DNA from: Spizellomyces punctatus DAOM BR117
Lineage: Eukaryota
DNA length: 64,000 nucleotides
Strand: one strand, 5' to 3'
Assembly: GCA_000182565.2 (NCBI GenBank)
Contig: KQ257457.1
Shown here: positions 47,145 to 47,858 of the stretch, in pieces
How the letters are laid out: each line of letters starts with the position of its first letter
Numbering within the stretch: the first letter of the stretch is position 1
The notes under the pieces: model-generated
What the model saw: the letters and a program-made list of their open reading frames with translations, nothing else
The model's database searches: none
Told to the model about the DNA's origin: nothing
Made by a program: the position numbers and the translations under genes

Positions 47145-47233
47145 TCAAAAGCCAGTATATAGTGTAGAGGTGACAGAAATTGGCACTAGCTACTACACCA
47201 GGGAATAAACCAGCGACAACTGGTTCGGAAAAG
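47145..47233 (-). ncRNA. Fanzor omegaRNA-like RNA: 74-nt scaffold (47233-47160) + ~15-nt guide TATACTGGCTTTTGA
   Basis: Minus strand TTTTCCG-AACCAG ttgtcg CTGGTT-TATTCCCTG-GTGTAG..GCTAGTGCCAAT..CTACAC-TA; GCTAGTGCCAAT block shared with SpuFz1 omegaRNA as recalled. Confidence 0.85.
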
Positions 47234-47269
47234 CCAAGTAATTCCCTCCTTACAACCAACCAACTACTA

Positions 47270-47554
47270 CTAGGCCCAATTACACATGCAATACATTACG
47301 GTTGTTCTAACGGGGTAACTAAGTTCACCACACGAGAGAAATCCTACTAAGCCCTTGATTCCGAAATTCTTTAGTCGGAGGATGTTCAGATACTAAGGTA
47401 AATGGGAATTAGACTGGGTAATTTGCGCGTGGGAAAAATCATATGGATATACCTGCGATCGTAGCAATATAGTAGTAGCAGCGTTGCAAGGGGTTATGTT
47501 GTTGTTGTAGTCGGGTGGGCGAGGTCCTCGGCACCACCACATCTGTATTCTCAT
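47270..47554 (-). CDS. Putative spliced 74-aa micro-ORF inside ghost element B (exons 47554-47453, 47392-47270)
   Basis: GTATAT..GTCTAAT..TTAG intron; peptide MRIQMWWCRGPRPPDYNNNITPC...KGLVGFLSCGELSYPVRTTVMYCMCNWA*. Confidence 0.45.
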
Positions 47555-47647
47555 GATTTGACCGACAGTCGTGATGAGAAGAATTGCACAGATGCTTCGA
47601 GTCGAGGATGGGTAAAGAGGAAAGGGGAAAGAGACAGAAGGTCCCCC

Positions 47648-47654
47648 TTTTATA
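47648..47654 (-). promoter_or_regulatory. TATA box of ghost element B cassette
   Basis: TATAAAA starting 100 nt upstream of ATG 47554, followed by a pyrimidine-rich leader as in copy A. Confidence 0.6.
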
Positions 47655-47858
47655 GACCTTTGGCATGCGCCTCACCGCAGTTTAAAAAAAAAATTACATG
47701 CATGCCACACCAATCTGAGCGATAGAGGGGGTTCTGATTATGCGATATGACTGACCGGATTAATCCGGATAATAATGAGTTCTAGTGCCATTTTCAATCA
47801 CCTCCACACTATGTATAATGCTAATGGCACACATCTCTAAATACATTCATTCACGCTC

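Follow-up and report, generated by a model that had tools for sequence, protein, structure and literature searches.

A probable ghost Spu-1 element of Spizellomyces punctatus with an omegaRNA-type scaffold and a spliced internal transcript

Alongside 42 loci that carry Fanzor genes, full or partial, Spizellomyces punctatus has been reported to have 134 "ghost Spu-1" loci, in which about 550 nucleotides (nt) without a Fanzor open reading frame (ORF) lie between 30-nt inverted repeats (IRs), the 5' IR being preceded by CA (Saito et al. 2023, Nature, PMC10432273). The right end of these ghost loci holds a 75-nt region resembling the omegaRNA of Fanzor loci; the guide of 14 to 15 nt is taken from the flank, and the target-adjacent motif (TAM) is 5'-CATA. 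Four ghost scaffolds supported SpuFz1 editing in human cells, a 275-nt 5' extension of the canonical scaffold raised activity, and the main text of that report links no mariner transposase to the Spu-1 ends (PMC10432273). SPu-1 was described as an element of about 2.1 kb with terminal inverted repeats (TIRs) 33 bp long, plus putative TA duplications (Bao and Jurka 2013, PMC3627910). A collation from 2026 holds 126 unique ghost scaffolds of 74 to 76 nt, about one-third of which group with the canonical scaffold and about half in a second clade, the rest forming smaller clusters; SpuFz1 edits less effectively when the scaffold is distant from the canonical one (PMC13434818). The main texts searched describe no native promoter, intron or native expression level for ghost loci, and their supplements may hold more. 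Here we analyze a window of 64,000 nt from S. punctatus DAOM BR117 (assembly GCA_000182565.2, contig KQ257457.1), with attention to a gene-less element on its minus strand, called B below, that very probably belongs to the ghost Spu-1 class, and to the spliced RNA made within it.

We read B as a non-autonomous ghost Spu-1 element, that is, a TA-flanked, IR-bounded, nuclease-less derivative of SPu-1/Fanzor1 whose right end retains an omegaRNA gene of the SpuFz1 type, and we hold this assignment with high confidence. Its parts are as follows.

47160-47811, minus reading strand: element B, 652 bp, IR-bounded, gene-less
47810-47813, minus: CATA directly 5' of B, equal to the SpuFz1 TAM, its last two bases being the first TA of the IR
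47782-47811, minus: left-end (5') IR of B, 30 nt, 26/30 identical to the right-end IR
47655-47781, minus: left-end-proximal variable region of B, 127 nt, 48% identity to copy A
47160-47234, minus: omegaRNA-type scaffold of B, 75 nt, the last 30 nt being the right-end IR (47189-47160)
47145-47159, minus: putative guide flank of B, 15 nt, TATACTGGCTTTTGA, directly after ...CACTA

The ends of B and their CATA/TA context can be read directly. On the minus strand the 5' flank runs ...TTATACA and then TA, which puts CATA at 47813-47810, where the first-pass annotation of this stretch had seen it, and the right-end (3') IR finishes ...CACTA at 47160. TA stands at both ends of B, as it does at 5/5 element ends in the window, where it is inseparable from the first IR bases; because only 2 nt are involved and no empty site is at hand, the TA target-site duplication that had been proposed reads equally well at B as part of the IR. 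A repeat finder gave arms of 34 nt that are 85% complementary (47156-47189 and 47782-47815), and the arm pair reached a BLAST E value of 7.7e-5 when the element was compared with the 64-kb window. Taken as 30-nt arms (47160-47189 against 47782-47811), the IRs are identical at 26/30 positions, so the four mismatches previously assigned to 28-bp TIRs stand and the length becomes 30 nt.

Set beside the published ghost Spu-1 loci, B has two 30-nt IRs (26/30), a likeness judged by layout. CA precedes the 5' IR, forming CATA with the TA, in 2/2 complete copies (B and copy A, described below). The IRs of B are separated by 592 nt, compared with the published figure of about 550 nt, and contain no Fanzor ORF, nor any ORF of at least 80 amino acids (aa) within 47160-47811. 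A 75-nt scaffold at the right end is followed by a flank guide of 14 to 15 nt with CATA as the TAM, stem 2 of the scaffold carries a 3-nt bulge, and there are several scaffold types of 74 to 76 nt (PMC13434818 for the clades). Against the main-text description, B presents no anatomical difference. The earlier reading of B as a Fanzor ghost element without a protein gene, marked by CATA, TA ends, an omegaRNA-type scaffold of 74 to 75 nt and a guide encoded in the flank, is therefore borne out, and the guide at 47159-47145 agrees letter for letter with the one then given. Since the 134 ghost loci and their clustered scaffold clades are published, this kind of element and the idea of subfamilies are already in print.

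B is located between two genes, as had been noted. The plus-strand ORF 45611-47074 stops 86 nt from one of its ends, and the minus-strand ORF 47859-48779 stops 48 nt from the other; minus-strand ORFs upstream of the latter encode UCH and DUSP domains, so that together they probably form a single gene for a ubiquitin-specific protease ("UBP12-like"). At 47755-47768, 14 nt inside the left IR of B, is a perfect 14-nt palindrome, CCGGATTAATCCGG, which is absent from copy A.

Folded alone, the scaffold of B consists of an 8-nt single strand, stem-loop 1 (47226-47207, scaffold positions 9-28, loop UGUC), a 6-nt linker AUUCCC (47206-47201, positions 29-34) and stem 2 (47200-47160, positions 35-75), with a z score of -2.99 and 1/200 shuffles as stable. 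Its length is 75 nt by this fold and the previously stated 74 nt if the start follows the published numbering. For the canonical SpuFz1 omegaRNA, 18 scaffold nucleotides are named in the text, together with a 6-nt linker, A29-C34 (PMC10432273), and B was compared at these text-named nucleotides and the linker rather than base by base over the full scaffold. On this basis 15/18 are present in B (U5, C6, C7, U16, G17, U18, C19, G20, A29, C32, C34, U35, G37, A72 and A75, positions up to 20 being shifted by one base), which includes the loop U-G-U-C-G and the linker A..C.C, and the linker of B falls exactly at the published positions 29-34. The 3-nt bulge in stem 2 is a published trait of ghost omegaRNAs (PMC10432273). 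Positions 40 and 70 of the B scaffold form a U-A pair in the predicted fold. A scan of 46900-48000 against Rfam at E up to 1 gave 0 matches.

Compared with SPu-1 and the canonical SpuFz1 omegaRNA (PDB 8GKH, as cited in PMC10432273), B has the same TA-flanked IR ends and the same placement of the omegaRNA at the right end, running through the IR, with the 15/18 nucleotides and the 6-nt linker in common. However, SPu-1 is about 2.1 kb long and encodes a 633-aa nuclease, whereas B measures 652 bp and has no nuclease; stem 2 of the canonical omegaRNA ends in an 8-nt loop, B departs from it at G22, C40 and G70, and the IR differs at seven positions according to PMC10432273. The TnpB omegaRNA of IS200/IS605 elements (e.g., ISDra2) resembles B in that the guide RNA is at the right end, takes its guide from flanking DNA and has as TAM the sequence at the left end, so that the RNA targets the element's own empty site. 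In contrast to B, the IS200/IS605 elements are prokaryotic single-strand transposons with subterminal hairpins and without IRs or TA flanks, and their omegaRNA, which overlaps the tnpB gene, is intron-less and includes a pseudoknot. Miniature elements of the Tc1/mariner type (Stowaway-like) are, like B, short and gene-less with terminal IRs and flanking TA, but they have neither a one-sided structured RNA gene nor an internal spliced transcription unit.

Two further sequences in the window belong with B.

9104-9817, plus: copy A with CATA and guide, same family as B, opposite orientation
9104-9107, plus: CATA of copy A
9106-9135 and 9773-9802, plus: IRs of copy A, 21/30 identical
9315-9322, plus: TATA box of copy A, TATATAAA, at the place matching that of B
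9512-9573, plus: intron of copy A, at the place matching that of B
9728-9802, plus: scaffold of copy A, fold z score -5.47, 0/200 shuffles as stable
9803-9817, plus: guide of copy A, 15-nt flank
24678-24752 (24663-24752 with 15-nt flank), minus: solo scaffold C, with a B-type IR (28/30)

Copy A, which had been named earlier, is present at 9106-9802 in the opposite orientation and is homologous to B across B 47194-47508 at 86 to 89% identity. Conservation between the two is very uneven: the 158 nt before the scaffold (47235-47392) are the best conserved part at 94% (148/158), followed by the first 45 scaffold nt at 91%, exon 1 and the intron at 72% each, either IR at 63% and the left-end-proximal part at 48%. 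The IRs agree at 26 of 30 positions between right and left ends of B, at 21 between left and right ends of A and at 28 between C and the right end of B, compared with 16 to 19 between A and either B or C. The claim that the TIRs match within but not between A and B thus holds in its direction (26/30 and 21/30 within, 16-19/30 between) and is overstated in its contrast, the terminal TAGTGT and 16-19/30 positions being common to both. Being 94% identical in the 158 nt that precede the scaffold and 91% in its first 45 nt, A and B are one family, and both types may serve one nuclease, as had been suggested. The element ends coincide with the homology breakpoints among the window copies, as the earlier reading implied: sequences diverge directly after ...CACTA at the right end in 3/3 copies (A, B and C), and CATA stands at the left end of 2/2 complete copies (A and B). 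Scaffold C matches the right end only and lacks both the left end and the ghost interior. No further IR-like site turned up in the window, the best other IR match being 19/30, and nowhere else in it was there a CATA-adjacent guide match of at least 12/15; a search of metagenome contigs with conserved 27-nt and 26-nt stretches of exon 2 returned 0 matches to further copies.

A and C each fold alone into the layout of B, and the structure-preserving changes in them support a conserved scaffold fold. In a gap-free alignment of the three scaffolds, 94.2% of 69 cells pair, and in 5/23 pairs both partners change (C's stem-loop 1 accounts for four, A's stem 2 for one), a number reached by 1/500 shuffles; slid controls gave 0 to 1 such pairs with 32 to 54% of cells paired, and the left ends of A and B lack the right-end fold. 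Stem-loop 1 of C has a different sequence, with 7/8 pairs kept via the four double changes. In copy A, stem 2 is longer and more regular than in B, and the IR is unlike that of B at 11/30 positions. The stop (24941) of a same-strand alpha/beta-hydrolase ORF lies about 190 nt upstream of C, which may, given this position, ride on the 3' end of that gene.

Another member of a class already in print is in itself a small addition; what deserves following is the internal spliced transcription unit of B and the high expression of that unit, which has the following parts.

47647-47654, minus: TATA box, TATAAAAG, putative promoter of the ghost transcript, conserved at the matching place in A
47453-47614, minus: exon 1, depth 437-3484, 5' end approximate (30-nt bin)
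47393-47452, minus: intron, 60 nt, GT..AG, with a CTAAT branch-like motif
47235-47392, minus: exon 2 upstream of the scaffold, depth 10730-28951

Raw RNA reads with the same species label (run X20, about 6/100 of the run) were aligned to 47045-47944, for which a second run (X22) and contigs of two other data sets (X14 and X1) were also used. The search that found these runs also returned small contig sets containing the stretch (X14 to X19) and metatranscriptomes with small shares of it; the small-share runs X2 to X13 do not enter the results. First mates on the minus side represent minus-strand RNA, because the protease gene at 47825-47944 has a depth of 38 to 48 on the minus side and of 0.3 to 3 on the plus side. 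Against that gene's 38 to 48, minus-side depth was 23348 to 28951 over 47195-47314, followed by 10730 to 15850 over 47315-47404; within the intron (47405-47434) it fell to 11.5, compared with 11480 and 1923 in the two flanking bins. Exon 1 showed 1302 to 3484 over 47435-47584 and 437 over 47585-47614, upstream of which depth was 10.2 (47615-47644) and 0.7 to 20 (47675-47734). Removal of the intron is seen directly in 413 reads with the splice joint 47392>47453 (CT..AC on the plus strand, GT..AG on the minus strand). Reads with loose ends, 11136 of them at 47394 and 5572 at 47386, run on into exon 1 of other copies, and we take them to show this junction in relatives. In the X14 assembly, one contig (record 11) spans 47372-47475 unchanged, so that the intron is present in that assembly, and an RNA contig of another study (X1, record 7) has the intron-less form. 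The X1 RNA contigs, from a root metatranscriptome, cover 47194-47508 with exon 2 and the spliced junction at 0 to 3 differences per piece, which indicates that samples of this type contain an expressed close relative of B's family.

Transcription of the scaffold strand starts from within B. In the unique flank beyond the right end, minus-side depth was 145 (47105-47134), then 75 and 44 down to 47045, whereas B's own upstream part (47615-47704) showed only 0.7 to 14; the transcripts that cross the scaffold of B therefore begin inside the element. The sequence TATAAAAG lies about 35 to 40 nt upstream of the bin in which minus-side depth rises, and from this spacing we infer that the TATA box at 47654-47647 is the ghost promoter. 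Furthermore, 6104 reads at 47194 continue into 16 bases of copy A's own IR, so that A-type scaffolds are transcribed too. Together, the reads suggest that ghost elements are transcribed and spliced from their own promoter. Just upstream of the TATA box, at 47615-47704, where the minus side shows 0.7 to 14, plus-side depth was 40 to 119; this signal, to which several copies contribute as judged from variants in the plus-side reads, might reflect transcription that diverges from the ghost promoter. On the minus side, depth in the protease gene (38 to 48) carries into the left part of B and drops to 0.7 by 47675-47704, on which basis the host mRNA may end inside the element; depth at 47735-47824 may be inflated by reads from other copies.

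These observations allow a model of how a ghost element might work. The approximately 450 nt upstream of the scaffold would be an expression cassette rather than filler, arranged, as the reads imply, as TATA box, start about 35 to 40 nt downstream, exon 1 of about 160 nt, 60-nt GT-AG intron and conserved exon 2 leading into the scaffold, and the omegaRNA would be cut or trimmed from the 3' end of the spliced transcript, probably a product of RNA polymerase II. By analogy with SpuFz1 and TnpB, a Fanzor1 protein assumed to be encoded elsewhere in the genome would bind the scaffold and about 15 nt of flank in trans and cleave DNA reading CATA followed by that flank, which is the empty site of B itself; such cleavage could favor retention or copying of the element. 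We tentatively propose, at somewhat short of even odds, that ghost Spu-1 elements are self-contained mobile guide-RNA genes, each with a TATA promoter, an intron and a conserved exon 2, whose omegaRNA matures from the 3' end of the spliced transcript, exon 2 possibly being a natural 5' extension of the scaffold.

Several points tell against this account. Most reads stem from other copies (91635/114715 are 95 to 99% alike), and the alleles of B itself are minor, for example at most 9% at 47217. With reads of at most 60 nt that are almost exclusively first mates (114708 versus 7), depth along the RNA may be biased, and the X20 library may be tag-like. No 88-90-nt species or defined 3' end appeared in the X20 reads, a library that lists no starts or ends, and transcripts extend at least 55 to 115 nt past the guide. 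On the side of the scaffold, 3/18 named nucleotides (G22, C40 and G70) are missed and one register shift is needed, and the covariation draws on three sequences, with the structure derived from one of them, B. Finally, a Fanzor or transposase Pfam family was found in 0/23 stop-to-stop ORFs of at least 200 aa in the window. Run X22 (same species label, 2023) gave no reads aligned to 47045-47944, which is no proof of absence.

The alternative that survives best, although we consider it unlikely, is that the spliced RNA and the omegaRNA are separate products: the omegaRNA would arise from a start lying just upstream of the scaffold or solely by read-through, and the spliced RNA would have its own role as a long noncoding RNA or an RNA of another kind. 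The strong conservation of exon 2 (94% between A and B, compared with 63% for the IRs) hints at a function beyond carrying the scaffold. Exon 2 shows no convincing extra structure (z score 0.18 for B, where the fold is not unusually stable, and -2.18 for A), a point on the same side, and the X20 library cannot show small RNAs or their ends. However, same-strand reads run unbroken from exon 2 through the scaffold and the IR into the unique flank of B, and no second TATA-like element turned up in 47392-47234, where no search was aimed at one. The gain in activity from the 275-nt 5' extension (PMC10432273) also fits a long precursor or a long functional form.

It is less probable still, and in our view improbable, that B is a fossil, a TA-flanked miniature IR element of the SPu-1 family whose hairpins are inherited and whose RNA is transcribed without being used as a guide by any Fanzor. 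The lack of a nuclease in the window and of a defined small-RNA end in the reads would fit such a relic, as would the changes peculiar to B when set against most of the family (4 nt inserted at 47357-47360, and the rarer alleles at 47217, 47312 and 47324-47325) and the solitary state of scaffold C, which stands without the rest of an element. Against a relic, both hairpins are kept by compensatory changes in three diverged copies, B retains 15/18 SpuFz1 contact nucleotides, and four ghost scaffolds were functional with SpuFz1 in human cells (PMC10432273).

That the element instead carries a small protein gene, the RNA serving as its mRNA, of which the scaffold would be no more than the 3' untranslated end, is very improbable: after splicing, A and B do keep an open frame from a common ATG to a common stop in an abundant spliced transcript (74 codons in B, starting in exon 1, crossing the intron and stopping at 47272-47270, region 47270-47560, minus; 71 codons in A, read by hand, stopping at 9690-9692, region 9414-9692, plus), but B reaches that stop only through two frame-changing indels that leave about 20 codons in a frame other than A's, the transcribed copies often carry such indels too (5572/20807 reads lack 1 nt at 47370 and 479/2031 reads gain 1 nt at 47483), and the small ORF has no significant relative among solved structures, the best match (E 0.45) being to LAGLIDADG endonucleases. 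For these three reasons the RNA is taken as noncoding.

The rest of the window is ordinary eukaryotic gene space, with homeodomain, malic enzyme, Csf1/BLTP1 and AMP-binding genes. Two ORFs were considered as Fanzor candidates and rejected, one of 628 aa at 59328-61214, which has no Pfam family and no PDB match, and one of 499 aa beside scaffold C, which encodes the alpha/beta hydrolase. A 125-nt direct repeat at 45006 and 62575 was likewise rejected as a mobile element, being explained by a pair of tRNA genes.

45045-45126 and 62613-62695, minus: tRNA-Ser genes (anticodon UGA)

A G-rich tandem array with 46-60-nt units occupies 8241-8646, about 450 nt before the left end of copy A. Further tandem repeats lie at 54717-54815 and 56823-61023, and the large ORFs 55247-59380 and 59328-61214, both without a Pfam family, contain long in-frame tandem repeats.

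How eukaryotic omegaRNAs are made natively has barely been described, and ghost loci have no nuclease mRNA on which their omegaRNA could ride. If ghost Spu-1 elements are indeed guide-RNA genes with their own promoter and intron, this would explain the conservation of about 550 nt in ghost loci, would show these loci to be highly expressed and would set out a path, open to testing, by which a spliced precursor becomes a 90-nt guide RNA. For engineered SpuFz1 guides it would point to natural 5' extensions, and it would be the first described route of eukaryotic omegaRNA biogenesis that is independent of the nuclease's mRNA.

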